Both the position numbers and the translations under genes were made by a program. A model generated the notes under the pieces. It was not told the origin of the DNA, ran no database searches, and saw only the letters and a program-made list of their open reading frames with translations. A DNA stretch of 64,000 nt, taken from assembly GCA_964606695.1 (NCBI GenBank), contig CAZSHG010000004.1:97725-161724 (forward strand), given 5' to 3'. Source of the stretch: an uncultured bacterium (GTDB lineage: Bacteria > UBP14 > UBA6098). This document shows positions 6,368-32,600 of this stretch, in pieces; positions within the stretch are counted from its first letter, which is position 1; the number at the start of each line of letters is the position of its first letter.

Positions 6368-6634
6368 ATGGAACCGAAAATGAGACGTGAACAATTATTA
6401 CAGGCCCTTGAAGAACTTGCCGCAAAAATCGGCATCGAAGTCCGTTATGAAAAAATGGGCACGATTTTGGGTGGGCTTTGTCGTATCCACGACGGTAAAG
6501 TTATACTCATCAATAAAAACCTTTCCGACGCGTCCAGGGTCGAATTGCTTTCCTCCGAACTTGCGCTGGAAAGCGAAAAACTCGAAAAGGTCTATGTTCT
6601 TCCTGAGGTTCGCGAAATACTTGGTCTGTCGTGA
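6368..6634 (+). CDS. Hypothetical small protein (88 aa), translationally coupled to comEC.
   Basis: ORF with no recognisable motif. Its stop overlaps the comEC start (ATGA at 6631-6634). Confidence 0.4.
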   Translation: MEPKMRREQLLQALEELAAKIGIEVRYEKMGTILGGLCRIHDGKVILINKNLSDASRVELLSSELALESEKLEKVYVLPEVREILGLS

Positions 6635-9087
6635 AACCCGCCAGGACTCCCCCAACACCTTTACTTATGGCCTTTGGTCTAATAGCGGTCGGTATCGTCT
6701 TAGCCAGGATGATATTTCCCCAGAGCGAAAAGGGCATTATCGTATTCGGTGCGATATCCATTCTCGCCTGCGTTGTAGCAATTCTGACGGCTTCATTCAG
6801 TAAAGGGAAAATCAAGCTGGCCGCCTTTATTACCATCGTTATTGGATTAATTTCGTTCGGCGGTTATCGTTACGAGCTGTGGAGCCGAATTCCAGAAAGC
6901 GACGTCAGTCGTCTCAACGGACGTGAAGTGCGGTTATACGGCGCAATCACAAGCGACATCGAACTTAGCGAAGATCGTCAGCGGTTCGAATTATCGGCCG
7001 ATTCGGTCGAAATCCAGGATACTATGGTCATCGCCATTGGTAAAATCCGCATTTATCTTTATCAGGCAAGACCACTCGCTTACGGCGATTATATAGCTAT
7101 TAACGTGAAACTCCAGGAACCCTGGCGCGCGACAAACCCTTATGCCTACGATTTCAAAAAATCCCTGGAATCCAAAGGAATCCGTTCGATTGCTTTCGTC
7201 TATCGGGATAGGAATGTTAGACTTCTCGATAGTTCCGGCGGAAGCTTCTTTTTATCGGACATCGTCAATCCCCTGCGCCGGCACATTGAAAAGACAATAG
7301 ACGCCAATCTTCACGGCGACTCGGCGGCACTGTTGAAAGGCCTTATGCTGGGGCTTGGACGAAAGCTCCCCGACGATGTCCGCGACGCTTTCGCAGATTC
7401 TGGAACGGTGCACATCCTTGCTGTCAGCGGTTTGCACGTCGGCATTATAGCCGGATTGGCGTGGTTACTTTTCGCTTCGATAATCCGTATTCCACGGGGA
7501 ATAAGCGCGGTTATGACAATCGTGTTGCTCGCGGTTTTCGCCGGGCTGGTTGGAGGAAGGCCATCAGTTCTACGTGCGGCTTTCATGTTCTCGATTATTA
7601 TCGTCGGTGCTTCGCTAAATAAGCCCCCCAATTTACTTAATTCGATAGGTGCGGCAGGCGCGGTTCTGCTCGCAATAAAGCCAATCTGGATAGGCGACAT
7701 AGGCTTTCAGCTTAGTTTCGGCGCTACGCTCGGAATAGCCTATTTATTGCCAAAATTCCAATCCTGGCTACCGGAAAAATATCAGAAAGCGAATTTCGCA
7801 GGAACATGGATCATTTCCCCATTCCTGGTTTCGCTTTCTGCAACCCTTGGCACCGCGCCGCTTGTGGCCTGGCATTTCCACCGTTTCCAGCTAATTGGCC
7901 CCATAGCCAACCTTGTCGTCCTACCGCCGCTTGGAATAATTATTGGTTACGGAATCCTGGCTGTGATATTCCAACCGATTTTGCCTTTTTTAACGAAACT
8001 TTTCCTCGCCGTAGATTGGTTATTCTTGAGGATTTACCTGCTTAATGCCGTGAAGTTTTTCGCGTCGTTACCATTTGCTTATTTGACATTTCCCCACCCC
8101 TCTTTTACCTGGGTGGTTTTCTATTATGTAGTCCTCGTCGCAAGCCCGGTATTGCTCCAGAAACTCAACCGAAAATATCTCGCGGCGATAGGTTACATAG
8201 CAATTACCGCGTTAGCCCTGTTGTTGGGCAGGATAACTTCGGTCGAGAGACTTGACGAGGACATTCGCGTAACATTTTTCGACATAGGCCAGGGCGATTG
8301 TGCATTGATTGAATTCGACGACGGGCGTGAGATGCTTATCGACGGCGGTCAACCAGGTAACGTGGATTTCAGTGTTGTGCCATATCTACAAGCACGGGGA
8401 TTAAAACGAATCGACGCAGTTGTGATGACCCACTCCGATGCCGACCACGTCGGCGGGTTACGCGACCTGCAAAACGATTTCGAATACGGCACGATCTATG
8501 TCCCATACGCAACTTACACCAGCAACCTGCATCGCCGTTTCATCGAATACGCCGATTCGCTCGGCACACTTGTCGAACTGCTTTCCCTCAGTGAACATAT
8601 CCACGATTTCCCGGAATTGGAAGTCCTCTGGCCGGATACGTTATCCGTATCGCCGGAAGGATCCCTTCTGGTGAATGCCAACGAGGGATCTATCGTTCTC
8701 ATGTTGAAATCGGGCGAAGCGGAAGTTTTCTTTGCAGGAGATATCGGTATCCCCACCGAACGAAGTATAGTCGAATTGGCGGACATCGAATGCGATGTCG
8801 TGAAAGTCCCTCATCACGGAAGTAAATACTCCACCGCCGAAGAGATGGTCAAAGAAACAACTCCTCTTCTGGCGGTAATCTCAGTCGGAGCTAAAAACCG
8901 TTTCGGTCATCCGGCGGATAGGGTTATCGAAGACTACAGAAAAGCCGGCAGTGAAGTCCTCCGCACCGATAAGCATGGCGCGGTGATTCTATCAATCGAT
9001 AAGGGTAAGATTAAATACCGAAGCTATCTTGGCAAATCCGGAGTCTTTAACGCAACCGACCAACCTCATCAAACAAACGTCGAATAA
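6631..9087 (+). CDS. comEC: DNA internalization-related competence protein ComEC/Rec2 (polytopic membrane channel plus C-terminal metallo-beta-lactamase domain).
   Basis: 818 aa with multiple TM helices. The competence-domain region (HILAVSGLHVGIIAG) and C-terminal MBL motif (VVMTHSDADHVGG ... VKVPHHGS) match the canonical ComEC architecture. Confidence 0.85.
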   Translation: MKPARTPPTPLLMAFGLIAVGIVLARMIFPQSEKGIIVFGAISILACVVAILTASFSKGKIKLAAFITIVIGLISFGGYRYELWSRIPESDVSRLNGREVRLYGAITSDIELSEDRQRFELSADSVEIQDTMVIAIGKIRIYLYQARPLAYGDYIAINVKLQEPWRATNPYAYDFKKSLESKGIRSIAFVYRDRNVRLLDSSGGSFFLSDIVNPLRRHIEKTIDANLHGDSAALLKGLMLGLGRKLPDDVRDAFADSGTVHILAVSGLHVGIIAGLAWLLFASIIRIPRGISAVMTIVLLAVFAGLVGGRPSVLRAAFMFSIIIVGASLNKPPNLLNSIGAAGAVLLAIKPIWIGDIGFQLSFGATLGIAYLLPKFQSWLPEKYQKANFAGTWIISPFLVSLSATLGTAPLVAWHFHRFQLIGPIANLVVLPPLGIIIGYGILAVIFQPILPFLTKLFLAVDWLFLRIYLLNAVKFFASLPFAYLTFPHPSFTWVVFYYVVLVASPVLLQKLNRKYLAAIGYIAITALALLLGRITSVERLDEDIRVTFFDIGQGDCALIEFDDGREMLIDGGQPGNVDFSVVPYLQARGLKRIDAVVMTHSDADHVGGLRDLQNDFEYGTIYVPYATYTSNLHRRFIEYADSLGTLVELLSLSEHIHDFPELEVLWPDTLSVSPEGSLLVNANEGSIVLMLKSGEAEVFFAGDIGIPTERSIVELADIECDVVKVPHHGSKYSTAEEMVKETTPLLAVISVGAKNRFGHPADRVIEDYRKAGSEVLRTDKHGAVILSIDKGKIKYRSYLGKSGVFNATDQPHQTNVE

Positions 9088-13705: not shown

Positions 13706-14740
13706 ATGAACTGGAAACTTCTGGAAGAGCTTTGTAATACCCCCGGAGTCCCCGGGCACGAGCGCAAGGTGGCCGAGATTTTCAAGCGCGAAGCCGAGGG
13801 GATCGCGGTGGAATCGTGGTTCGATAACGTCGGCAACTGCATAGTGCACGTCGGCGGGGAAGGCCCGGTAGTGGCGCTGGACGCCCACACCGACGAGGTC
13901 GGTTTCATCGTCTCGCACGTCGATGACGAGGGCTTCATTCGCGTGGTCCCGCTGGGGGGCATCGACCCGCGAGTTTTTTACGCGCAACGCGTCGTCGTCC
14001 ACGGCACCGAGGATTTGCCGGGCGTTGTAGGCGCGGTTCCGCCGCATCTTCTGAACAAAAACGCCGACCGCGACAAGGCAGTGCCCATCGAGGACGCCTT
14101 CATCGACCTGGGCCTCCCCGGGGATAAGGTCAAACAGAAAGTCCGCATAGGGGACGTGGTCACCTTCGACAGCAAGTTCGAGGATTTAGGGGACGTGGTC
14201 ATCGGGAAGGCGTTCGACGACCGGCTGGGCCTGTTCGTCATCCTCGAGGCTATTAAAAAAGCTAAGAAAATCGCCTGCGACCTCTATCTGGTGGCGACGG
14301 TTCAGGAGGAACGCGGCCTCCGGGGCGCGACCTGCGCGGCTTTCACCGTCAACCCGGACATCGCCATCGCACTGGAGGGGACTTTTGCGAACGACCTGCC
14401 GGGAGTGCCTTCGCACAAGCGGCTGGCCACGCAGAACAAGGGCGCAGAACTCCGCATCACCGACCGCGCCGTCATAGCCGACCGCGCGCTGGTGGACTAC
14501 CTGGCGGAAATCGCCGACGGCGGCGGCATCGACCACCAGTTCGTGGTGAAAAACGCCGGCACCACCAACGCCACCGCCATCGAGCTTGCCTCCGGAGGCA
14601 CCCGCGTGGCGGCAATCTCCGCGCCGGTGCGATATATTCACAGCCCCATCGGCATGGTCAACAAGCACGACATCGAATGCCAGATAGACCTCCTGGCGAA
14701 ATACCTGGAAGTCGCCGACAAAACCCCGCCGCGGCGGTAG
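13706..14740 (+). CDS. M42 family (FrvX/CelM-like) aminopeptidase. The gene is distinctly GC-rich compared with its neighbours.
   Basis: 344 aa with M42 architecture (GHERKVAEIF..., ALDAHTDEVGF, GKAFDDRLG, EERGLRGA). Its last about 70 bp and terminator are duplicated downstream. Confidence 0.8.
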   Translation: MNWKLLEELCNTPGVPGHERKVAEIFKREAEGIAVESWFDNVGNCIVHVGGEGPVVALDAHTDEVGFIVSHVDDEGFIRVVPLGGIDPRVFYAQRVVVHGTEDLPGVVGAVPPHLLNKNADRDKAVPIEDAFIDLGLPGDKVKQKVRIGDVVTFDSKFEDLGDVVIGKAFDDRLGLFVILEAIKKAKKIACDLYLVATVQEERGLRGATCAAFTVNPDIAIALEGTFANDLPGVPSHKRLATQNKGAELRITDRAVIADRALVDYLAEIADGGGIDHQFVVKNAGTTNATAIELASGGTRVAAISAPVRYIHSPIGMVNKHDIECQIDLLAKYLEVADKTPPRR

Positions 14741-14798
14741 TTACGCTACCCCTAAAAATTTCCCCCGGCTCCCGCGCTCCGCGTGGGGGCCTTTTTTA
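14668..14798. repeat. Direct repeat copy 1 (131 bp, identical to 15711..15841). It covers the 3' end of the M42 gene, its stop and a rho-independent terminator.
   Basis: Base-by-base reading shows an identical 131-bp string (cgacatcgaatgccagatagacc ... gcgtgggggcctttttta) at both positions. Confidence 0.85.
14762..14797 (+). terminator. Rho-independent terminator of the M42 gene (GC-rich stem CCCCC...GGGGG followed by T6).
   Basis: cccccggctcccgcgctccgcgtgggggcc followed by tttttt. The same structure recurs at 15805..15840. Confidence 0.6.
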
Positions 14799-15030: not shown

Positions 15031-15327
15031 ATGAAAAATAAGGAACAAATAAAATCTCTGATCTCGGCAAACCTGGCGACAATCAAAAAGCGGTTTGGCG
15101 TTTCCTCCATCGGCGTGTTCGGATCTTATGTTCGCGGCGAACAGACCGAAAACAGCGACCTCGATATAATTGTCGTTTTCGAGCCGGGACACAACGACCT
15201 GTTCAATTATTCCCGCCTGAAGACCTATCTTGAGGAATTATTCGGTCTGGAGATCGATCTGGTAATTCAAAACGGCATTAAGCAAGAACTTCGGGATAAC
15301 ATACTCGGAGAGGTTCAATATGCCTGA
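15031..15327 (+). CDS. mnt: Nucleotidyltransferase-domain protein (MNT-type), the antitoxin partner of HepT in type VII toxin-antitoxin systems.
   Basis: 98 aa with the minimal nucleotidyltransferase motif GVFGSYVRGEQTENSDLDIIV (GS...D.D). It overlaps the downstream HEPN gene by 8 nt. Confidence 0.85.
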   Translation: MKNKEQIKSLISANLATIKKRFGVSSIGVFGSYVRGEQTENSDLDIIVVFEPGHNDLFNYSRLKTYLEELFGLEIDLVIQNGIKQELRDNILGEVQYA

Positions 15328-15673
15328 CAGCAGGAGAACCGACCTCCATTTTATTGAAGACATCCTGGTTGCGATTGAGAAGATCGAGCGCTATGTTGGG
15401 GATATGGATTTCGAGAGTTTCGACGCTAACGATATGGCCAAAGACGCGATTATAAGGAATTTTGAGGTGATCGGGGAAGCGGCGCGGAATATTTCGGATG
15501 AGATGCGCGCCAGATATCCTTTTGCCGAGTGGAAAGAGATGACCTCCTTTCGGAATGTTCTTATTCACGGCTATTTCACCCTGAGCACCGAGACGATCTG
15601 GGATACGGTAAAAAAGAACCTCGAACCGCTGAAAGCCCACCTGTTAGAGATTAAAAAGGCCGAAACAAGATGA
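15320..15673 (+). CDS. hepT: HEPN-domain toxin (HepT/DUF86 family) with the R-x4-HxY motif.
   Basis: 117 aa with FRNVLIHGY (Rx4-6HxY HEPN RNase motif). Paired with the MNT gene in the canonical antitoxin-toxin order. Confidence 0.85.
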   Translation: MPDSRRTDLHFIEDILVAIEKIERYVGDMDFESFDANDMAKDAIIRNFEVIGEAARNISDEMRARYPFAEWKEMTSFRNVLIHGYFTLSTETIWDTVKKNLEPLKAHLLEIKKAETR

Positions 15674-15680
15674 CCATATA

Positions 15681-15783
15681 ACCCGGCGACGCCCAATTCG
15701 CCGACGGCGGCGACATCGAATGCCAGATAGACCTCCTGGCGAAATACCTGGAAGTCGCCGACAAAACCCCGCCGCGGCGGTAG
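15681..15783 (+). pseudogene. Degraded duplicate of the 3' end of the M42 peptidase gene, in frame through the TAG at 15781-15783. It probably carries an internal deletion relative to the intact copy.
   Basis: The stretch ttcgccgacggcggcgacatcgaatgccag fuses two sequences that lie about 150 bp apart in the intact M42 gene (atcgccgacggcggcggcatcgac at about 14507 and cacgacatcgaatgccag at about 14665). The identical last 24 codons and stop follow. Confidence 0.5.
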
Positions 15784-15841
15784 TTACGCTACCCCTAAAA
15801 ATTTCCCCCGGCTCCCGCGCTCCGCGTGGGGGCCTTTTTTA
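15711..15841. repeat. Direct repeat copy 2 (131 bp, identical to 14668..14798), including the duplicated terminator.
   Basis: Identical string on direct reading. It is immediately followed by an RBS and ATGCACATCACAA, the start of the next gene. Confidence 0.85.
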
Positions 15842-15891: not shown

Positions 15892-16788
15892 ATGCACATC
15901 ACAATCGAACAAAACAAAGTCATCGTCAACCTCGACGAAAACGAGTTCCCAGCCTTCGAGGCGATGTTTCGGAACCTCGAACTGGACAAATTCGTCCAAT
16001 GCGATTTTCGGGATTTCGATTTCGGGGATTACGGATCGAAGCGAAAGCTCCTGCCTATGCACCTATGCCGAACAATCGGCGAGGCGAACCTTGGAAGCGA
16101 CCCCTTCGCAACCGTGTCGCTCTATCCCTTCTGGAAACACGGTTTTGCTTTTGGGGCGGATGATAACCTGATAATCGCGCCGGGAGTGGAGGACCCACAC
16201 AAGAAAGCCGTTGCCGCGGACGAGTTCGGCATGGGCTTCTGTTGCTGGGCGATGGAGGAGCTGTTCAACTGCGACACCTGGGCGGACTGTTCCGCGCTGA
16301 TAAAGATGGGCGCGGTGTTTCCGGTGGGAACGAAACGCCCGGATTTCGTATGCACCCTCCCCGACGGCTCCCTCGGCGTGTTCGAGGCGAAGGGCACGAC
16401 CGGCACGGCGGGCAACCTCGCGCTAAGTCAGGGCAAAATCCAGACTCAGGGCATAACCGCAGACGACCCAATCTCCCTGCGCGTGGTTGTAGGATGCGCT
16501 CTCGGCGGCGACACCACGCGAATAGTTCTCCTCGACCCGCCCCCCTCGACTCCCCTCGGGGACCGGCCCTCGAACGGAGAACGGGACGAAAGGTCGTTGA
16601 GCGGAGCCGAAACGAACGGTGTGAAAACCAACCTGACCGCCGACCTCGTAAAACGCGCGGCGAAAGGGATGCGCACCCAGACCCAGACGCTGCAAACCGT
16701 ATTCCGCTCCCCCACCGCCGAACTCAACCTCAAACGCAAGGATTACAAAGACGACAAAGGCCACGGCTGGCTGGAGATTAATCGATAA
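15892..16788 (+). CDS. Hypothetical protein with a PD-(D/E)xK nuclease-like core and a GC-rich, Pro/Thr/Arg-rich C-terminal tail. The likely start is MHITIEQ at 15892; the ORF track extends it to 15826.
   Basis: The motif arrangement AADEFGMGF ... RPDFVCTLPDGSLGVFEAKGTTG fits E ... PD ... ExK of the restriction-endonuclease fold. This is a pattern-level inference with no family assignment. The 3' third of the gene (about 16400-16790) is very GC-rich. Confidence 0.4.
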   Translation: MHITIEQNKVIVNLDENEFPAFEAMFRNLELDKFVQCDFRDFDFGDYGSKRKLLPMHLCRTIGEANLGSDPFATVSLYPFWKHGFAFGADDNLIIAPGVEDPHKKAVAADEFGMGFCCWAMEELFNCDTWADCSALIKMGAVFPVGTKRPDFVCTLPDGSLGVFEAKGTTGTAGNLALSQGKIQTQGITADDPISLRVVVGCALGGDTTRIVLLDPPPSTPLGDRPSNGERDERSLSGAETNGVKTNLTADLVKRAAKGMRTQTQTLQTVFRSPTAELNLKRKDYKDDKGHGWLEINR

Positions 16789-16848
16789 ACAATGGTATGT
16801 TAATAGCTTCGATGAGAATGGATTAAATATATAAACTTCATAAACAGC

Positions 16849-16877
16849 TTGACATTTGTTTTTAAGGAAAGTAACTT
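16849..16877 (+). promoter_or_regulatory. Candidate promoter for the methyltransferase gene (TTGACA, 17-nt spacer, TAACTT).
   Basis: TTGACA at 16849-16854 and TAACTT at 16872-16877 in the AT-rich spacer between the GC-rich upstream gene and the AT-rich methyltransferase gene. Confidence 0.25.
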
Positions 16878-16886
16878 TGAATTAAG

Positions 16887-19766
16887 TTGGTTCCAAAAGG
16901 GGTTTTCCAAATGAGCAGTCCACATCAATGGCTTTTAGATTTCCAGGAAACTGGAAATACGACTATTGAAGGGATTGTCTCGGTCGATAACTATTCCCTA
17001 AACGACTTGCCTCCCGATTCTATCCCTATAATGGAAAAAGCCGAGGAATACGGAGCAAAAGCCGTATTCTTTGAAAAGGAGCGGGAAGGCAGACCTCCAA
17101 TTGCACAAGCCTTCATCTTTGTTTGCGACGAACAGGCCGATAAAGAAAGATTTGCTAAACTGCACCAGCGGATGTGGAGCTGGGGCGGCGTTCCTCTGGT
17201 CTATAGAGTTACACCGGGCAAGGTAGAGTTGTTCCGGTGTGCCCATAAGGCGGATTTCGAAAAAAACGGTGAAATCAGTTATAAAGCCTACAAGACTTTA
17301 AAAACTGCTGCAAAGATTGCGAATGATCCGTGGTGGGATTCTGACCGCCTTTATTATGGAAGTATATGGGACGATCCGACAGCTTGCAAAAAACTCCTAT
17401 CAGGTAGCCGGGCGGCGCAGAATACTTTGATTAAAGAGGTAAAAGCCCTCAACACTAAATTAGAGGAAAAAAGCCACTTAGATAGGCCACTTCAGCGCAA
17501 ACTACTTATTTTGTCTTTGATGATCGCATACCTCGAAGAACGGAAGGTCCTTACCGAAGATTATTTCTATAAGTTTAAATCCGGGGCAAACGAATTTTTT
17601 GAAATACTTAAAGATGGCGAAGCGCTGGTAAATCTCCTTGAAAATCTCGAAGAGAGATTCAACGGCCAGATTTTCACTTTATCGCCGGAGATGAAAACGG
17701 AGCTACGGGAAAATCCTGACCTTAGCGAATTCGTGAGGCTTATCGAAGGAATAGAAGACACAAGCGGACAATTAAATCTTTGGAAAAGGTACTCGTTTGC
17801 CGATTTACCAGTCGAATTAATAAGCCACGTTTACCAGCTTTTTGTCGAAGATAAAGACACTGCCGTTTATACCCCGCCTTTCCTCGTGAAATTAATGTTA
17901 GGAGAAGTTCTCACCAAAGAACGGCTGGATAGACTAATAAAAGAGGAAGAGATTATTCTGGACCCGGCTTGCGGCTCTGGCGTCTTTTTAGTCGAAGCTT
18001 ATAAACGCCTTGTGCTACATTGGAGGGCCGAAAAAAATTGGGAAGAGAAACCAGGTGAAGATGACTTAAAAGAACTTTTAACGAAATACATCTATGGCAT
18101 TGATAAAGATAAAGGGGCGACGGAACTAACCGCTTTCAGCCTTTGCCTTGCGCTTTGCGATGCACTTAAACCGGACGAGATTAGTGATAGTAGAAAGATA
18201 TTCCCTCCACTTCTGGGCAAAAACGTTTATGCCATGTGTTTCTTCGAAGCGAGAGAACAGAACAAGATAGAAAAGGACGTCGGGATAATTGTCGGAAATC
18301 CGCCCTTTAAATCTGAATTAATGACTGATGGGGCTAAGAGCGCCTATGAACGATACAACAAGGAATATGCAGATGAAAGAGGCAAATTACCCGACAAGCA
18401 AATAGCCTATCTCTTTCTCCATAAATCGATGGAGATGCTAACTCCGGGCGGTGTTCTCTCGATGCTCCAACAATACAGCTTCTTGTATAACGAACAATCG
18501 ATAAGTTTCCGGAAGAAGTTTTTCGAGAAATGGGATGTTCGAGAAATCCTCGACATGGTTTCTATAACCGGCCTTTTTAAAAAAAGTAAAAAGAACACAA
18601 AGGTTGTTGTTATCGTGGCTGAGGCGAAAGAACCATCTCCAGAGCGAAAGATTCTGCACGCTACTTTCCGACGTAGCGGTAGAACTCATGCCGAACAAGG
18701 TTTCAATATTGATTACTACGATTTACATTGGTTAAAACAGGAAACTGCCGTTGAAAGCCCCTGGATTTGGCGTTCGGATTTGTTTGGAGGTGGTCGAGTT
18801 TTTAATCTAATTGAGAGATTGAAAGAGTACCGGACTCTAGAACAATATGCAAATGAACAGGATTGGGACCATGGGGAAGGCTTCATCAAGGGAGGAAAAG
18901 TAAAAAGAAAACCAGCAAAACATATAACCGGAAGCTTATTAATTAGACCTTATCAATTAGAAGAAGAAGAGATTAACATTGAGACTTTACAAAAGGTAGA
19001 AGAAACGAATTTTAGGTCGGCTTATTCTAAGAAGCGATTTACTGCTCCTATGGTTCTTGTTCGAGAAAACGAAAACCTTGCGGTTAAGTACTTTTCATCT
19101 GGTTATTATACTTATGAAGATAAAATCGTAGGCTTCTGTGTCGGAGATGGGAAAGATGATAATTTATCTTTGTTATTTAATTGGTTTAAAAGTAATCGTG
19201 AAACACTTATAGCCTTGGTTTGTGCAGGAGGAACTACCAACTTTACTCAAAGAGATTCGCAATTAAGCTTATCTGATATACGAAGCTTACCGTCCCCTGA
19301 CATCGACTTGGATTTATCGTTTACCGAGAAAATCGTCGTATCTGATATTGTCGAATATTACCGTGAGTTAATTAGAAAGGGCCAAAATTCGGACGCGATG
19401 ACAAAACCGGGCATAGATGCCCTCCCTGATTTCAATGGAATCTATACCGGTCAGATAAACGCGATCTATAAAGAGAAAAAACTAAAGGCACTCGAACCTC
19501 AAACATGGGCGGGGTTCCTATGCCAGCCCTATGTTTTTGGCGATGGGGAAGTCGATTGGTCGGGTTCGGACGGACTGAAAGACAAATTAGAAAAACTAAT
19601 GAAGGAAAAACGGCCTTATGGCCTGAATATTTATCGAATAGCACGGATTTATGACGGCCCATTCATTTTTCTCTTAAAACCAAACGTTTTGCGTTATTGG
19701 CTGAGGTCTATTGCCCTACGCGATGCCGACGAAACCTTGTCCGATTTATGGAAGCAGGGCTTCTGA
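16887..19766 (+). CDS. Large (959 aa) gamma-class N6-adenine DNA methyltransferase fusion protein. It has an about 330-aa N-terminal domain, a methyltransferase core and an about 340-aa C-terminal, presumably target-recognition, region. The size class matches Type IIG/IIL (Eco57I/MmeI-like) enzymes.
   Basis: Motif X AVYTPPFLV preceded by LISHVYQLF, motif I ILDPACGSGVFLVEAY, motif IV IIVGNPPF. The size and domain order resemble single-chain RM enzymes, but no convincing nuclease motif could be confirmed by eye in the N-terminus. About 41% GC versus about 60% in flanking genes. Confidence 0.8.
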   Translation: MVPKGVFQMSSPHQWLLDFQETGNTTIEGIVSVDNYSLNDLPPDSIPIMEKAEEYGAKAVFFEKEREGRPPIAQAFIFVCDEQADKERFAKLHQRMWSWGGVPLVYRVTPGKVELFRCAHKADFEKNGEISYKAYKTLKTAAKIANDPWWDSDRLYYGSIWDDPTACKKLLSGSRAAQNTLIKEVKALNTKLEEKSHLDRPLQRKLLILSLMIAYLEERKVLTEDYFYKFKSGANEFFEILKDGEALVNLLENLEERFNGQIFTLSPEMKTELRENPDLSEFVRLIEGIEDTSGQLNLWKRYSFADLPVELISHVYQLFVEDKDTAVYTPPFLVKLMLGEVLTKERLDRLIKEEEIILDPACGSGVFLVEAYKRLVLHWRAEKNWEEKPGEDDLKELLTKYIYGIDKDKGATELTAFSLCLALCDALKPDEISDSRKIFPPLLGKNVYAMCFFEAREQNKIEKDVGIIVGNPPFKSELMTDGAKSAYERYNKEYADERGKLPDKQIAYLFLHKSMEMLTPGGVLSMLQQYSFLYNEQSISFRKKFFEKWDVREILDMVSITGLFKKSKKNTKVVVIVAEAKEPSPERKILHATFRRSGRTHAEQGFNIDYYDLHWLKQETAVESPWIWRSDLFGGGRVFNLIERLKEYRTLEQYANEQDWDHGEGFIKGGKVKRKPAKHITGSLLIRPYQLEEEEINIETLQKVEETNFRSAYSKKRFTAPMVLVRENENLAVKYFSSGYYTYEDKIVGFCVGDGKDDNLSLLFNWFKSNRETLIALVCAGGTTNFTQRDSQLSLSDIRSLPSPDIDLDLSFTEKIVVSDIVEYYRELIRKGQNSDAMTKPGIDALPDFNGIYTGQINAIYKEKKLKALEPQTWAGFLCQPYVFGDGEVDWSGSDGLKDKLEKLMKEKRPYGLNIYRIARIYDGPFIFLLKPNVLRYWLRSIALRDADETLSDLWKQGF

Positions 19767-20497
19767 TGTGCAGGAGAATGCTGTCTGATATTGAGCCCAT
19801 TGCACATTCGGGCAGAATAGGGGAAGAGGTCCTTGCACGGAATACAATTCGATTCGAGCTTATCGAATTTATTAGAACGGAATTACCAAAATGGCGCGAT
19901 GACCCGGAAAGGCCTATGGAACATGCCGAGACAGTTTTAACCAGCCAGCTTTGTAGCCATATGAATAGCGTATCAAGAATATCAGAAGCATGGCATAGGA
20001 TTCAATTTGGAACAGAAATCCGAGATGAGAATAATAAAAGAGGGACAATCGACTTTGCACCAAAACCATGTTCTGTGGTTTTGATAATTGAAGGTCGCAA
20101 ATATACTCATTTTGATATGATTTTCCCAATCGAGTGTAAACGCTTACCTACTCCGGCCGGTACAAAAAGAGACGAAAAAGAATATGTAATTGTGGATAGT
20201 GGGTCTACGGGTGGGATCCAACGATTCAAGTTCGGTTTTCACGCATCGGATCATGATTTTGGTGCAATGATAGCCTATGTTCAGGATGCCATTGGTTTTA
20301 GCCGATGGCTGACCAGAATAAATGGATGGGTTCACGACCTCGGGCAAGCTACTGATTCTGTTTGGTGCGACGAAGATCGTTTGGAGCTTTTAGAAGAAGA
20401 TACGGATAACCGTGTTTGTTCATTGAAATCGAATCATCATCGCCAAAACGGCCTCGACGACATCGAGCTCCGACATTTATGGATTGATATGAATTGA
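19767..20497 (+). CDS. Hypothetical protein (about 243 aa) with a possible PD-(D/E)xK-like nuclease motif. The likely start is the ATG at 19767 (MCRRML; TGATG overlap with the methyltransferase stop); the ORF track starts at 19697.
   Basis: GTIDFAPKPCSVVLIIEGRKYTHFDMIFPIECKRLP contains D ... E.K spacing compatible with a restriction-endonuclease-like core (weak). About 43% GC and tightly coupled to the methyltransferase gene. Confidence 0.3.
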
Positions 20498-20696
20498 AGT
20501 AATTCGCGGGGAGCGAAATTCCCCTTGACAAATGACAGTTCGTATTTTAGCTTTTGTGTAGCGGTTTGGTTATGTGGATGGTCTTTGATAATGTTAAGTG
20601 TTCTCGGGGGGTGGAAAATCACCTTTTTTGGGATTTTGGGAGCGAAACTGGGGGTTTTTACGTAAGTGGTTGATTTATAACGTGTAGGAGCGGAAA

Positions 20697-20923
20697 ACAC
20701 GGGCGCTTTTTGATGGACACGCGCACTTTTCGTTAAAACACGAGCATATTCAAGAAAACATGGGCGCTTTCTCCAAATACATTAGCATTTTCTCCAAATA
20801 CACGGGCACTCTACCAAAATACATTGGCACTTTCGGGAAATACACGCGCACATTTCAGAAAACACGAGCACTTTGCTCAAATACATTGGCACTTTCGCCA
20901 AAAACATTAACGCTTTTGTAACC
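20697..20923. repeat. Tandem array of 11 imperfect repeats of 20-21 bp (consensus about ACAYNRGCRCTTTCNNNAAAT), ending 11 bp before the start codon at 20935.
   Basis: Units read directly: acacgggcgctttttgatgg / acacgcgcacttttcgttaaa / acacgagcatattcaagaaa / acatgggcgctttctccaaat / acattagcattttctccaaat / acacgggcactctaccaaaat / acattggcactttcgggaaat / acacgcgcacatttcagaaa / acacgagcactttgctcaaat / acattggcactttcgccaaaa / acattaacgcttttgtaacc. The period equals two helical turns, with an A-tract in each unit. Confidence 0.8.
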
Positions 20924-20934
20924 GGGGAGAGATC

Positions 20935-21936
20935 ATGGCCAAGAAAACAAGAGAACCAGCAAGGTTAGGGCACGCGGACTATTGCAAGTGGTTCGAGCAG
21001 ATGATCGGATTCAAGGAAGATCGTATTGCCGACGGAACCTGGCCGACTCATCTAAACGCAAATTTCCAGGCACTGTTCAATGAATTATGGGACGCCTGGG
21101 ACACTTACGATCGTTTGAAAAATGAGCTTAAAGGGACGACATACAAGGCGTATGACGATGCCTCGAAGCCGGTTTATGATCGGTTAGTCTCGCTTCGAGA
21201 GCTAATTCCGACGCTTTTCGACGGCGACGACGCGGTTCTCGGCGAATTCGGCATGGCTCGAAAAGTGCCTCGCGACAAAGAGGATTTGTTCACGATGGCG
21301 AGCGGGTGCCTGGAGCATTGGGACGACATCACTGACCCGGACGTCCCGCCCGAATATGCGCCCGTTGCGGATATGTTCGCGGAGTTTCAGGATGAATACG
21401 ACACGTTTCAGGCCGCTTACACGGCGTATATCGCCAAAACGCGAGATGTCGAGGAGGCTCAGAATTTATTGCTCGAGAAACGCGAGCTTTGCCATCACAA
21501 GGAGCGTCTAATTTTCCACTGGTTCAAGGGATTACATAAGGACGGCGAGGCTGAATGGTGGACCGCGACGCTCTGGGGCAGGACTGGTGGCGGTTCTGGC
21601 GGCGGGGAGGAGCCGGGGCCGAGTAGCTGGGAGGATGCGCCGACGAATTTCGTCTTGAAAGAGGGTGTTGCGGGGTCGGCGTTGCTTCAGGCGGATGTCC
21701 ATGCCGATGCCGACGGATGCGCGGTGTTCATGGCCGAGACGGAACTGGGCGTGGCGGAACCGCCTATGCGTCCGGGCGAGCCTCTCGAGCCGCTGATTAC
21801 GCCAATCGAACCCGGAAAGTTTTCCTATAATTTGAATATTACGCCGAACCGTCGGGTGTGGTTTTGGATCTGCCATGTCAAGGACGGCGCATGGGGCGCG
21901 ATTGCGGGGCCGGAGTGGATCGAGATCGAGAAATAA
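20935..21936 (+). CDS. Hypothetical cytoplasmic protein (333 aa). Acidic helical N-terminal domain, Gly-rich linker (GRTGGGSGGGEEPGPSS) and C-terminal domain of about 110 aa.
   Basis: Clear RBS (GGGGAGAG) 4 nt upstream of the ATG. No recognisable catalytic motif. Preceded by the 21-bp array and followed by a perfect palindrome. Confidence 0.5.
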   Translation: MAKKTREPARLGHADYCKWFEQMIGFKEDRIADGTWPTHLNANFQALFNELWDAWDTYDRLKNELKGTTYKAYDDASKPVYDRLVSLRELIPTLFDGDDAVLGEFGMARKVPRDKEDLFTMASGCLEHWDDITDPDVPPEYAPVADMFAEFQDEYDTFQAAYTAYIAKTRDVEEAQNLLLEKRELCHHKERLIFHWFKGLHKDGEAEWWTATLWGRTGGGSGGGEEPGPSSWEDAPTNFVLKEGVAGSALLQADVHADADGCAVFMAETELGVAEPPMRPGEPLEPLITPIEPGKFSYNLNITPNRRVWFWICHVKDGAWGAIAGPEWIEIEK

Positions 21937-29606: not shown

Positions 29607-32600
29607 TTAATCCTCTTCTCGGATATAGAACTCGTTTCTTCTTATCACGGCCCTTTCAGGAACCGTAGCTGAATCGGAAACTTCGGGGTCGTATTCCGGC
29701 CGCCGTCTTCTCGATACGTATGTAACCGATGTATTAATAACGGCACCCGTGCTATTTATGGTTACCATCAGGACATCGGTGCTCGGAGCGGTGGAATCTG
29801 GGGCTGTCAGTGTCCAGCTCGTCTCGCCGGTTGCGCCGGTTACTGCGTTACCGCCGCCGGATGCGCTTGCCGCGGAAAGCGTTACGCTCTCGCCGGCAAT
29901 TGGGTTATCCCATTGATCGACGATACGCGTGCTGACCAGATATGAAGTATTATATGGAACTTCAGACGGAGCCGTTATCGACGAATGACTGGAATTCGGT
30001 AGATCGTGCTTCAGATATACAACATTATTAGCAGTAACACCGCCAATATTAGCCGTAACGTCCACTATACGAGCCGTATCCTGGTTTGCGTAATCATCCC
30101 GGAACAGGTTAGCGCCGGTATAATTACTAATTGCGTAACTGCCGTAGCATTCGTTAATCGAGGTAACCGGCGAGGACGCCGTTCCCCAATCCGCGATAAC
30201 ATTCACGCTGGTTCCGTTAACTACGGGACGGCGGTTAACGTCCCAAATCGAGACCTGGATTTCCGCCGTTCCGGTAGCATCGGCATATACCATATATGGC
30301 GAGATGGAAATACTAATCGAGTCCGCCGGGCCGCTGTTGTAGAAGAAAGTAGTATCGGCACGGGTTCCGGATGTATCTCGTGTTTCGGCGGAGATAGTTA
30401 CGATGCCGCTATCCCTCGGCGACGATGAATACCAGGTAGCGAAAGCGAATCCGGAATCGTCCGTCACCGACGATGTTGTAACCGCGCCCTGTAACGCGGT
30501 GAACCATACTGCCGTTCCGGGCGCAACCGGGTTATCGTAAACATCGGTAACGATTGCCATCACTGAGTTCGCTACGCCGTCGGTATCGAAACCCGGAACA
30601 TTGCAATCGCCTACGGAGACCGAAACATGATACGGTAATCCGCTTCCTATAGTAATCCTCGGCGCACGCGAATCGATAGATCCGCCGGCAGGAATATATG
30701 CCACCGCCTCGATGACCATAGACCCAGATCTGTCGCCGCTTCGTGCCGCGACGCTGGCGCGACCGGCCATCGTATATACCGTATCGCTGACCAATCCGCC
30801 GCCTGGAATAAGTTCCGGATTGATAGAGCCACCGATCGGGTAATCGACGATTCGGAATATTACTGCGCAACTATCGCGAACCGGATTATCGTATTGATCG
30901 AATATTACCGCCTCTATAACCGCCTGGTCTATTTCGCCTACACCGCGGATATAAATAAAGTCTCTACTGACATCGATATCCATCGTATGAGGTGGGCCTG
31001 CTTTAAGGAGAATATTTGCGTGCGCTGTGATTTCATCGACGGTCGCCGTAACACCGGTCATACCTGCTTTCAGGCCGGGCGTGTAGAACGTCGAGAAGTA
31101 ACCGCTGTCATCGACTGCGACTATCGGATCGGCGATACTACCCGTTCCGATGCTATCGACAGTGAGATATACATAAGTTCCCGCCGCGACGGGATTTCCC
31201 ACGCCGTCGGTTACCATACCGCTAACCACACTCGACGTTGTGCTTCCGACTGTAGCCGTATCGGGCACAACGGATAACTCGATATCCGCTGGCGAGCCGG
31301 CTTCGTAGGTAACAGCGACCCTGGACGTTTCTCCCAGGCATGTCGCCTTTATAGTATCCACGCCGCTTGTATCGGCGGCTACCAATAAGGCTTCCGCGAT
31401 ACCTCCCGATAGATAATCGAAAGGAGTAATCAGGCCGAGATCCGCCGTAAATCTCACTATAACTCCGTTTGCAATCGGATTACCATCGGAGTCGAGAACT
31501 AGCGCTCTGACATCCGCAGTTGAAGATCCGTCGGCAGGCAAGCCTCGCGGAGTAATGCTGAGGATTATCGTATCTACCGAATCTGGCACGAAGTCGATAG
31601 GCAGATAACCTGTCGCTCCGCCGCTTGTAGCCATCAGATATGTCGAGCCCACAGAATCGGGAGAGGTAATTCTGAATCTAACTCCGCCGTTGCCGTCCGT
31701 AACCGCTATCGGTGGGCTTACGTATCCGAATTCGAGTGTGAAGTTCACCGCCTGGTCGGGGATGGGATTGCCAAAGGCATCCTCTACCCAGGCGGAATCG
31801 CTGAGCGTATCCGCGCCATCCGCAATTAATTGGACGAAACTCGTATCGAAACGCACAACTGCCGCTTCACCGGGACTGAAGTAAACGGACTGCGTATCCG
31901 AACATACGGTATCGCTTCCCATTGGTATATATGCATAAACATAAGTGCTTCCCGCTATGGTTGGTGCGTAAAGTTCGACGGTGGCCTGTCCGCCTTCTGT
32001 GTCCTGCCTGTTCGGGACTATTAAAGCCTCTACGTTTCCCGGCGGGACGAGTTGCGTGAATCGCACAATCGTGCCGTCGGCTATCTCGAAACCGGTCGAG
32101 TCCGTTACGAAGGCTCTAACGTTCGTGCTCGAAATACCGTCGGCATCCATGTATCTTGTGTCTATCGAAAGGCCGATATCCGCTACGGTAGTCGGCATGA
32201 GTTCTACCTGCGTTATACCTGTTGCCGAACCACAGTTAGCGGTAATTACGGCCATTCCCGCATATCTACCTGCTCTGAATCTTATATCGAAAGCTCCGGT
32301 ATCGTTTGTAGCGGTAACAGGTGTAATCGTGCCGTAATCAGATGGATTGATGCTCAAATTAACTATTTGTCCCGCATTCACCGGATTGCCTTCTTCGTCG
32401 TAAACGACTCCGTAAATACGCGTTGTATCCGTTTCATTGGCAAGTAGCGATGAATCTGCCGGCCACATGCGTATCAGATACGGATCGCCAGGCACGAATT
32501 CTATTGATACTGTGTCGGTGGAATCGCCGCTGGTGGCGACGAGGGTATCCCACCCAACGCTTGTATATGAAGTAACAGTCCCATAAACTACGCCATCGAC

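Follow-up and report, generated by a model that had tools for sequence, protein, structure and literature searches.

A two-gene module of a DNA methyltransferase and a putative nuclease with a predicted split Type IIG-like layout in an uncultured UBP14 bacterium

Background

Single-chain Type IIG restriction-modification (R-M) enzymes carry their nuclease in the N-terminal ~200 aa. In a 2014 review, the nuclease is N-terminally fused in every Type IIG organization listed (PMC3874165). The Type IIB enzymes BcgI and BsaXI are two-polypeptide, ATP-independent R-M enzymes built on a gamma-class methyltransferase, in which R and M are fused and S stands apart. In Type I R-M systems (HsdM/HsdS/HsdR), a constant nuclease is steered by a methyltransferase/specificity unit whose recognition domains can be swapped. 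The heterodimeric Type IIS enzymes R.BspD6I, BtsI and BsrDI have a non-specific small subunit and, as their large one, a nicking endonuclease instead of a methyltransferase; methylation comes from separate genes. BREX systems contain PglX/BrxX, a large Eco57I-type adenine methyltransferase with its own specificity domain.

Here we describe a locus in a 64,000-nt window (the whole stretch of DNA that was analyzed) from an uncultured bacterium of the UBP14 lineage (contig CAZSHG010000004.1), with three neighboring genes termed g1, g2 and g3. The methyltransferase g2 resembles the Type IIG/IIL enzymes MmeI, DrdV, Eco57I and BpuSI in its gamma class, its size of ~950 aa and the lack of an ATPase, in the order of its parts (N-terminal domain, methyltransferase, variable specificity domain, conserved C-terminus) and in a specificity that appears to diversify through changes in the variable domain. 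However, its N-terminus is without a conserved catalytic motif, a separate putative nuclease gene, g3, is always present, and alignment to solved Type IIG structures is weak and restricted to the catalytic domain. Compared with BcgI and BsaXI, which g2/g3 would resemble as a two-polypeptide, ATP-independent enzyme on a gamma-class methyltransferase, the fusion is different: here M is joined to a specificity segment and R is apart. Unlike Type I systems, with which the constant nuclease and swappable recognition segment would be shared, the pair has neither a helicase/translocase motor nor a separate HsdS, and its nuclease candidate is just 239 aa long. It also differs from the Type IIS heterodimers, and from BREX, to which g2 is linked by its type and by weak motif I matches but which has no dedicated PD-(D/E)xK partner like g3. 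An arrangement with M fused to a specificity segment, R separate and no motor is not listed in a 2014 survey of Type I relatives, and no described split Type IIG or comparable two-subunit system was found in the literature.

Results and Discussion

Gene layout and boundaries

Reading of the sequence located three same-strand ORFs at or near the coordinates of the original prediction (Table 1), which had described a methyltransferase flanked by two nuclease-fold proteins beside a toxin-antitoxin cassette. This co-oriented layout was borne out, and the upstream cassette is of the MNT/HepT type (Pfam NTP_transf_2, 9.5e-19; HepT-like, 2e-29). Judged by the large or clear homologue families found for each, g1, g2 and g3 are genuine genes and not chance ORFs. 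The predicted jump in GC content was found as well: g1 has 58.6% GC, g2 42.2% and g3 42.9%, a step of 16 points from g1 to g2, and the low-GC pair is set within housekeeping surroundings.

Table 1. Positions of the genes and domains of the locus in the window
Feature	Coordinates	Strand	Description
g1	15892..16788	+	298 aa; outside the g2/g3 module
AT-rich spacer g1-g2	16789..16910	+	~120 nt; left edge of the low-GC insert
g2	16911..19766	+	951-aa gamma-class N6-adenine DNA methyltransferase with its own putative specificity segment
g2 N-terminal domain (aa 1-315)	16911..17855	+	conserved blocks and invariant residues; no fold assigned by sequence
g2 methyltransferase catalytic domain	17856..18800	+	motifs invariant across homologues
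g2 variable segment (aa 661-810)	18891..19340	+	putative target recognition domain
g2 C-terminal domain (aa 811-951)	19341..19766	+	highly conserved; co-varies with g3 (rho 0.69, 0.74)
g3	19778..20497	+	239 aa; predicted PD-(D/E)xK restriction-endonuclease-fold protein, obligate partner of g2

An AGGAGG motif is located 6 nt 5' of the g1 ATG. For g2, the TTG start at 16887 that had been proposed (959 aa) is possible, but the ATG at 16911 is more likely, and the deposited protein P0121 has the same length, 951 aa, as g2 read from that ATG. The spacer between g1 and g2 contains a perfect -35-like TTGACA (16849-16854), followed after a 17-nt gap by a weak -10 TAACTT (16872-16877). This TTGACA-17-TAACTT site fell below the thresholds of a promoter scan, with 3 of 6 positions matching in the second hexamer, and we therefore regard it as suggesting, rather than establishing, a promoter of g2's own. 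At the g2/g3 boundary the expected TGATG junction is present; its ATG, however, is at 19766 and not at 19767 as predicted (the length of 19767-20497 cannot be divided by three). This ATG, which overlaps the g2 TGA, and position 19748 of the deposited annotation are alternative starts of g3. Homologues of g3 begin with 'ML', corresponding to 19778 here, typically 12 nt past the methyltransferase stop.

Pairing of g2 and g3

Genome loci were located through g3, and in 80 of 80 a homologue of the methyltransferase stops a few bases 5' of g3 on the same strand. In metagenome loci found via the methyltransferase, g3 is directly downstream in 77 of 80, the other three being interrupted by the contig end. 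The two are thus paired in 157/157 testable loci, and no locus with room for g3 was without it. The gap between them is 2-15 nt in 76 of the 77 metagenome loci, with a mode of 12. Fusions of g3 with a methyltransferase were not seen among the best 150 representatives, all of which are standalone proteins of ~100-400 aa. In two loci the g3 ORF is intact and the neighboring methyltransferase is truncated, by an IS insertion (L063) or by decay (L060). Both agree with a nuclease that is harmless when its partner is absent; loss of g3 expression could equally account for them.

Clustering of all flanking ORFs in 80 loci revealed no conserved third gene. Homologues of g1 were present in 0 of 160 methyltransferase/g3 loci, and so was the 333-aa gene located downstream (20935-21936). 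This gene was ruled out as a third partner by ORF clustering and tblastn, as were the variable 126-aa or 301-310-aa genes found downstream in loci L001-L006. As far as these neighborhoods indicate, the module is formed by two genes, g2 and g3, not three. Hence the proposal that nuclease-fold proteins flank the methyltransferase on both sides within an operon was not supported, g3 alone being paired with the methyltransferase (80/80 and 77/77 testable loci). Methyltransferase homologues that never occur with a flanking gene had been named as evidence against the module; the neighborhood comparison found this for g1 and clearly the opposite for g3.

The g1 family is small and lineage-restricted, with 107 homologues. 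The E...PD...ExK pattern that had been noticed in g1 is conserved in the family (E...PD...E-A-K), where E122, P150 and D151 do not vary and at least 90% of the members retain E165 and K167. A single member gave a faint HSDR_N match (E 0.015). The neighbors of g1 homologues vary between genomes and are often defence genes, while no relatives of g2 or g3 were found in the six contexts examined. On this comparison g1 is an unrelated neighbor, a nuclease-motif protein that is not part of the g2/g3 module.

The methyltransferase g2

More than 3000 homologues of g2 were found, with 55-62% identity. The profile searches proposed with the original prediction gave Type IIG-type matches for g2, none for g3 and, for the g1 family, the faint match mentioned above. 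Pfam matches of g2 above the cut-offs are Eco57I (4.5e-15), N6_Mtase (1.7e-13) and MmeI_Mtase (3.2e-08). The best PADLOC match is REase_MTase_IIG PDLC03603 (2.3e-44, aa 91-731), a single-chain Type IIG profile; the beginning of its alignment at aa 91 counts against a split reading. The motifs reported earlier are present and invariant across homologues: YTPP (aa 320-323, 17868-17879), motif I DPACGSG (aa 351-357, 17961-17981) and motif IV NPPF (aa 463-466, 18297-18308). In a PDB profile search, matches were confined to the catalytic domain, the best being CamA (1.4e-09) and RM.BsaXI (8.3e-09), followed by weaker ones to BrxX, BpuSI (0.003), MmeI (0.22) and HsdM.

In alignments of homologues, no invariant D...(D/E)xK was found in aa 1-330 of g2. 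The nearest pattern is P95-L96...Q106-L-F108, in which the catalytic positions are substituted, a candidate degenerate motif. The N-terminal domain gave no match in PDB or Pfam, including MmeI_N or any other nuclease family. It also gave none to the g3 profile in hhalign, so that no duplication of g3 can be recognized in it. It may be a docking platform or a dead nuclease.

Membership in described multi-gene systems was considered. The NCBIfam PglX profile scores 52 bits on g2 against a cut-off of 500, and with no other gene conserved beside the pair in 80 loci BREX was ruled out. The original prediction had also judged the locus not to be BREX, and this agrees with the lack of a conserved third gene in 160 loci and of any partner match in the window ORFs scanned: pglZ, brxC, brxL and PADLOC BREX matches were absent among ten large ORFs, which lie before 48946 and are other than the giant ORF at 29607-45413. 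MADS/DISARM was rejected, since the mad2 match covers the methyltransferase domain only (35 vs 720 bits) and conserved partner genes are lacking. Type I R-M was ruled out as well, with two conserved genes only and a g3 without ATPase.

The candidate nuclease g3

Candidate catalytic residues of g3 are E51 (19928), D92 (20051), E119 (20132) and K121 (20138). E51, D92 and E119-x-K121 do not vary in a set of 60 diverse g3 sequences, nor in 66 independent ones. The motif of g3 had been called the weaker and ambiguous one, but its D...ExK is the one that is invariant, and the ranking of the two nuclease candidates is reversed, with g3 the conserved partner and g1 not. A structure model built on an alignment of 60 diverse sequences (pLDDT 92.5) replaced an earlier one from 31 close homologues (pLDDT 57.6), which was dropped. 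In this model g3 shows the alpha-beta-beta-beta-alpha-beta core of the PD-(D/E)xK superfamily, with E51 in helix 51-68, D92 in strand 90-97 and E119 and K121 in strand 118-123. The structure prediction suggested as a check thus supports a restriction-endonuclease-like fold for g3, although the accompanying Foldseek search of the model against PDB returned noise only (E >0.3).

The folds nearest to the model are those of the Type IIP enzymes BamHI, BglII, BstYI and OkrAI, at 7-11% identity, and no kinship with them was detected at the sequence level. These enzymes read their own palindromic site, whereas g3 shows no specificity-linked variation. Sequence and profile searches of g3 in Pfam, PADLOC, NCBIfam, PHROGs and PDB gave no match, and no ATPase was found in it. 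From the model, g3 is probably a small PD-(D/E)xK nuclease with a remote BamHI-like fold, for which cleavage is predicted. Its identity across phyla is 42-57%.

The putative specificity segment

The stretch aa 661-810 is the least conserved of g2 and its sole hypervariable, recombining segment. Between pairs of systems it is 22-98% identical, with no coupling to the identity of the remaining g2 (rho 0.12), and 23 types were distinguished among 65 systems. The GC content of its coding stretch is 35.3%, vs 43-44% elsewhere in g2. These data show that the segment is swapped between systems via recombination, and from its position and behavior we infer a role in recognition.

The identity of g3 follows that of the g2 N-terminal domain (rho 0.78/0.81) and catalytic domain (rho 0.76/0.79), but does not track aa 661-810 (rho 0.13/0.29). 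Co-variation with the segment was also absent from every 20-aa window of g3 (partial rho <=0.19). In L012 and L013, g3 is 92% identical and the segment 41%; in L029 and L043, the values are 86% and 26%. Specificity thus seems to be carried by g2 and not by g3, and g2 is the predicted targeting and modification subunit.

Proposed mechanism and alternatives

The prediction of a restriction or defence-type module is supported: it is built around a gamma-class methyltransferase whose size and domain order are like those of Type IIG enzymes, and its layout differs from the textbook Type II and Type IIG ones. We think it probable that g2 and g3 constitute a two-subunit, ATP-independent R-M system with a split Type IIG/IIL layout. 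The g2 protein would recognize a DNA site through the exchangeable segment aa 661-810 and mark host DNA there by adenine N6 methylation at its NPPF active site. The constant g3, without specificity of its own, would be recruited or licensed by g2 at unmethylated sites and would cut at or near them, and the ~330-aa N-terminal domain of g2, without conserved catalytic D/E/K, would most likely dock g3. A physical complex, methylation and cleavage are inferred from these comparisons, and so are the position of the cut, a function against phages and the part played by the N-terminus. More tentatively, and with a chance that we put somewhat below even, the locus may represent a widespread enzyme class in which a plug-in-segment methyltransferase programs a separate, specificity-free BamHI-like nuclease with no ATPase. 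The g2 N-terminus would then derive from the nuclease domain of a Type IIG ancestor, its P-D...E-x-K having become P-L...Q-L-F, and would persist as a dead pseudo-nuclease paired with the live one. If so, targeting and cutting would be on separate polypeptides and the family naturally programmable.

Other readings of the locus were weighed. In one, g2 would by itself be a full Type IIG/IIL enzyme, a single chain whose N-terminal domain is an active nuclease of non-canonical type, and g3 an accessory such as a second-strand cutter or modulator. This is unlikely: aa 1-330 contain no conserved D...(D/E)xK, the nearest pattern being P-L...Q-L-F with its catalytic positions replaced, neither MmeI_N nor another Pfam nuclease or PDB match covers the N-terminus, and an accessory role would not predict strict pairing in all 157 testable loci. 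A conventional Type II system, with g3 as an independent sequence-specific endonuclease and g2 as its cognate methyltransferase, would fit the nearest folds of g3, which belong to sequence-specific Type IIP enzymes, and a gene order and tight M/R coupling that are common in such systems. However, we consider it quite unlikely. The recognition segment is swapped while g3 stays 86-92% identical, without co-variation in any part of g3, and an independent endonuclease would therefore cut unprotected host sites. Moreover, an identity of 42-57% across phyla is unusual for independent endonucleases unless they are isoschizomers, a version that clashes with the number of segment types, and an intact g3 is retained beside a broken methyltransferase in two loci.

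A role outside defence was also considered, in which g2 would methylate DNA for epigenetic or regulatory purposes, and g3 would be either a nuclease of repair or recombination or a toxin that only stabilizes the element by post-segregational killing. Orphan-like gamma-class methyltransferases such as CamA are indeed the best PDB matches of the catalytic domain, and the pair is found on plasmids, where addiction modules are common. Against this, diversifying segment exchange is a hallmark of restriction systems under phage pressure, the patchy cross-phylum spread and low GC point to mobility and not to housekeeping, and addiction behavior belongs to R-M systems anyway and needs no separate mechanism, so that a non-defence role seems quite improbable. 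Least credible, and highly improbable, is a three-gene system in which g1, g2 and g3 cooperate, the methyltransferase being placed between two nucleases. The three genes are adjacent and co-oriented here, the g1 family keeps its E...PD...ExK, and defence genes are often beside g1 homologues; yet g1 is missing from all 160 g2/g3 loci, its own six contexts hold no g2/g3 relative, and between g1 and g2 there are a ~120-nt spacer and a drop in GC from 58.6% to 42.2%.

Distribution and annotation

If the split model holds, one polypeptide would recognize DNA and another would cut it, and dozens of naturally occurring specificity variants would share a nearly constant scaffold. This would be attractive for engineering cutters, as the MmeI family has been used. 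It would also mean that a large family is currently mis-annotated, the best PADLOC match for g2 being a single-gene Type IIG profile. The strict adjacency of g2 and g3 offers a simple detection signature for genome annotation.

As for carriage by phages, no match was found in 50,697 phage records, and one was found in IMG/VR. The pair is horizontally mobile and does not look like a housekeeping locus, given its patchy cross-phylum spread and low GC. The g3 family comprises at least 809 clusters at 50% identity and ranges over Verrucomicrobiota, Planctomycetota, Acidobacteriota, Armatimonadota and Proteobacteria. Among cultured bacteria, the pair is carried by Labrenzia sp. THAF187b (on plasmid pTHAF187b_b), Gluconobacter cerinus NBRC 3267, Agrobacterium vitis S00303 and Halopseudomonas pelagia CL-AP6. 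The g2/g3 pair is present on 20 plasmids, conjugative plasmids included, and is labeled in RefSeq as 'N-6 DNA methylase + hypothetical protein'.

Gene content of the region

Three co-oriented ORFs, here called g1, g2 and g3, are present as originally predicted. The GC content drops from 58.6% in g1 to 42.2% in g2 and 42.9% in g3 (whole window 49.9%), in agreement with the predicted jump, and the toxin-antitoxin cassette expected upstream of g1 is of the MNT/HepT type. Two gene starts were revised. The 959-aa version of g2, read from its listed TTG start at 16887, is a real ORF, but the ATG at 16911 gives 951 aa, the length of the homologues, and the deposited protein P0121 is 100% identical to this reading. 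The predicted TGATG overlap of g2 and g3 exists at the junction (...TTC TGA TGT GCA GGA GAA TGC TG...), but its ATG lies at 19766, not 19767, and g3 homologues begin with ML(A/S)D, a start that falls on the ATG at 19778 in the window. A distance of about 12 nt between the methyltransferase stop and the g3 start is the commonest spacing in other loci.

Features of the region, in window coordinates
Feature	Position	Length	Remarks
ComEC-type competence protein	6631-9087		Competence, DUF4131 and metallo-beta-lactamase domains
Direct repeat, two copies	14668-14798; 15711-15841	131 nt	perfect; copy starts 1043 nt apart
MNT/HepT cassette	15031-15673		flanked on both sides by the repeat
g1	15892-16788	298 aa	AGGAGG 6 nt upstream of ATG
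g2, methyltransferase	16911-19766	951 aa	
g2 N-terminal domain		aa 31-330	conserved
g2 catalytic domain		aa 331-660	conserved
g2 segment	18891-19340	aa 661-810	hypervariable; 35.3% GC versus 43-44% for the remaining gene
g2 C-terminus		aa 811-951	conserved
g3, nuclease-like	19778-20497		
Degenerate tandem array	20693-20927	21-nt unit	about 7-10 copies
Mechanical ORF	20760-20921	53 aa	heptad repeats; overlapped by the array
Orphan gene	20935-21936	333 aa	
Giant ORF	29607-45413	5268 aa	minus strand

The surroundings of g2 and g3 in the window are housekeeping genes (glycine-cleavage P protein, ComEC, M16/M28/M42 peptidases, TonB-dependent receptor and nitroreductase). No further defence system was found among the ten large ORFs scanned, a set taken up to 48946 and without the giant ORF. 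The metallo-beta-lactamase domain of the ComEC protein gives spurious PADLOC matches to LmuA, DRT and PDC-M48B models, at the domain level only. The direct repeat is made up of the M42 peptidase gene's final 73 nt and its terminator hairpin; it looks either like the trace of a small unit that integrated there via recombination or like an artefact of assembly.

g2 and g3 form a two-gene unit

There are at least 1600 homologues of g3 (about 238 aa) and more than 3000 of g2 (about 947 aa), and contigs of identical length turn up among both sets of matches. The pairing was checked in both directions, with 80 genome loci reached via g3 and 80 metagenome loci via g2. A methyltransferase homologue ends just 5' of g3, on the same strand, in all 80 genome loci; the match is partial in eight, six by contig end and two by truncation in place. 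In the metagenomes g3 lies immediately 3' of g2 in 77/80 loci (complete in 71 and running off the contig in 6), and all but one of these 77 have a gap of 2-15 nt; the remaining three leave no room for g3, and none with room lacks it. When the flanking ORFs of 70 aa or longer were all clustered against one another, only the g2 and g3 families emerged and no third conserved gene. Other ORFs shared across loci are shadow ORFs within g2/g3, the next real family occurs in only 4 loci, and flanking genes differ between individual neighbourhoods. In RefSeq the two proteins are annotated as "N-6 DNA methylase" and "hypothetical protein".

Neither g1 nor the 333-aa gene occurs in any of the 160 g2/g3 loci. 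The original prediction joined g1, g2 and g3, which do stand co-oriented here, in one module; comparison of the methyltransferase neighbourhoods upholds g3 as a partner but not g1, and such a three-gene system is very hard to credit. The finding is real and worth pursuing in corrected form: g2/g3 is strictly a two-gene unit, a methyltransferase and a nuclease-like protein of split Type IIG-like design, which in the window has as neighbours a toxin-antitoxin cassette and a gene that carries a nuclease motif but is unrelated to the unit.

The 333-aa gene has no link to the pair and was ruled out as a partner; it has no family match in Pfam, PADLOC, NCBIfam, PHROGs or PDB sequences. The tandem array in the spacer upstream of it has the consensus ACATGGGCACTTTCCCCAAAT.

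The g1 family is small and lineage-restricted, with 107 matches labelled only "bacterium", Zixibacteria or Aenigmarchaeota. The nuclease motif predicted for g1 is reasonable, since the pattern E...PD...EAK is conserved in the family (E122, P150 and D151 invariant, E165 and K167 in at least 90% of members), but it stays at pattern level: g1 has no match in Pfam, PADLOC, NCBIfam, PHROGs or PDB sequences, and HSDR_N matches one family member faintly. Various defence or toxin-antitoxin genes stand directly beside the g1 homologue in five of the six contexts examined. It lies 3' of Fur-catalase and 5' of a RelE/MqsA-like pair (L007), is followed by small genes and then Dam and an Mrr-like gene (L008, L009), precedes a C5 methyltransferase, a UvrD-PDDEXK protein and Vsr (L092), or stands between type I-C cas genes and SNIPE/HEPN genes (L093); the surroundings in L094 are not defence. 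g1 looks like an independent gene tending toward defence islands and is not a partner of g2; it may act as a defence nuclease in its own right or mark a hotspot of integration.

Architecture of the two proteins

The gamma-class motifs YTPP, DPACGSG and NPPF were all found in g2, as predicted. Its Pfam matches are Eco57I, N6_Mtase and MmeI_Mtase and its best PADLOC match is the Type IIG R-M fusion profile PDLC03603 (2.3e-44, aa 91-731). Scores against the NCBIfam BREX PglX, MAD2 and Alw26I-type models are far under the cut-offs. The catalytic domain (about aa 316-562) is the one part of g2 that aligns to solved structures, those of CamA, RM.BsaXI, BrxX, BpuSI, HsdM and, weakly, MmeI. The division of g2 into parts comes from conservation measured block by block in 65 systems. 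Invariant positions of the N-terminal domain are E42, Q66, H85, WSWGG-P95, Y98, R99, L107, F108, R109, C110 and H112. The domain matches nothing in PDB or Pfam, its profile shows no resemblance to that of g3, and a D...(D/E)xK motif is not conserved in it. The closest pattern is P95-L96...Q106-L-F108, which could, by inference, be a decayed PD...ExK; position 106 is E in the window and in 2/66 sequences overall.

No match to g3 was found in Pfam, PADLOC, NCBIfam, PHROGs or PDB sequences. When 1.84 billion representatives were searched by profile, at least 809 clusters emerged; the best 150 of these contain no fusion to a methyltransferase, all being standalone proteins of about 100-400 aa. A 60-sequence alignment reaching down to about 30% identity has invariant E51, F77, D92, E119, K121, E135, Y136, G145, R149, S218, R222 and H233 (numbered from 19778), and in an independent metagenome set, too, the four catalytic-type residues do not vary. 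The AlphaFold2 model from a diverse alignment has pLDDT 92.5 and pTM 0.88 (a shallow alignment gives only pLDDT 57.6). In this model helix 51-68 begins with E51, strand 90-97 carries D92 and strand 118-123 carries E119-x-K121, a predicted residue layout that is canonical PD-(D/E)xK. The similarity of the g3 fold to known nucleases is remote.

Seat of specificity and proposed mechanism

The key comparison for telling a conventional Type II pair from a nuclease guided by its methyltransferase was that of pairwise identities over all pairs of 65 genome systems. Identity of g3 follows that of the N-terminal domain, catalytic domain and C-terminus of g2 (Spearman 0.78, 0.76 and 0.69) and does not correlate with that of the hypervariable segment, the putative target recognition domain (0.13), which is decoupled from the remaining g2 as well (0.12). 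At 60% identity the segment falls into 23 types and g3 into 8 clusters, and no 20-aa window of g3 co-varies with the segment (partial rho at most 0.19). Modular exchange is seen in single pairs of loci: L012 and L013 share 92% identity in g3, 95% in the N-terminal domain, 97% in the C-terminus and 41% in the segment, and L029 and L043 share 86% in g3 and 26% in the segment. The independent metagenome set has the same pattern (0.81, 0.79 and 0.74 for the constant parts, 0.29 for the segment), and segments are less than 50% identical in 4/17 of its pairs with g3 at least 85% identical. The low GC of the segment fits recombination from another source.

The simplest reading of these sequence comparisons is that g3 would have no specificity of its own and be directed by g2, because a self-reading nuclease could not survive segment swaps in the methyltransferase that protects from it. 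A conventional Type II pair, contradicted by segment exchange without a matching change in g3, is therefore improbable. Two loci with an intact g3 ORF and a broken methyltransferase agree weakly with a specificity-free g3 aimed by g2: in L063 (6095-7992) the methyltransferase is truncated by an IS3-like element, with a P4-type integrase-like gene adjoining, and in L060 (6998-8729) it is decayed and frameshifted. That g2 is a single-chain Type IIG enzyme complete in itself, g3 being an accessory, has in its favour that the PADLOC fusion profile aligns from aa 91, within the N-terminal domain; we consider it unlikely. A role of the pair outside defence also has a low probability. On balance we favour a split Type IIG-like mechanism, with methylation directed by g2 and cleavage by g3. 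We infer a complex of the two proteins acting in defence, in which g2 would attach to its target site via the exchangeable segment and methylate adenine using SAM. At or near unmethylated, foreign sites the complex would cut with the g3 active site, and the N-terminal domain, in the place of the fused nuclease of Type IIG, probably holds g3.

Related arrangements are known. In BcgI and BsaXI the separate subunit is S, so that these enzymes are split elsewhere than g2/g3, with S detached. Type I systems have a constant R steered by M/S, with a motor, and heterodimeric Type IIS enzymes such as R.BspD6I illustrate that a small specificity-free PD-(D/E)xK subunit can rely on a recognising partner. 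The g2/g3 pair would work like a Type IIG/IIL enzyme but probably lacks the fused nuclease that defines them, and we class it as a variant of Type IIG/IIL and not a member. A 2014 survey of Type I systems and relatives describes Type IIG as gamma-class methyltransferases whose N-terminal cleavage domain is "permanently present", and R is fused to M in every organisation tabulated there (PMC3874165). No published description of the g2/g3 pair was found in the literature; REBASE may hold a putative annotation.

Distribution and mobility

The pair is carried by Verrucomicrobiota, Planctomycetota, Armatimonadota, Acidobacteriota, Alpha-, Beta- and Gammaproteobacteria and former Deltaproteobacteria, cultured strains among them. 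It is mobile and is found on 20 plasmids, of which 16 are predicted to be conjugative or mobilizable. In phages it is nearly absent. The unit in the window is horizontally acquired. On the mobilizable plasmid pTHAF187b_b of Labrenzia sp. THAF187b (L090), a divergent four-gene cluster (710-4329) directly 5' of the pair encodes a radical SAM protein, a 3'-5' exonuclease, an AAA ATPase and an HD-domain protein, and looks like another defence-type operon.
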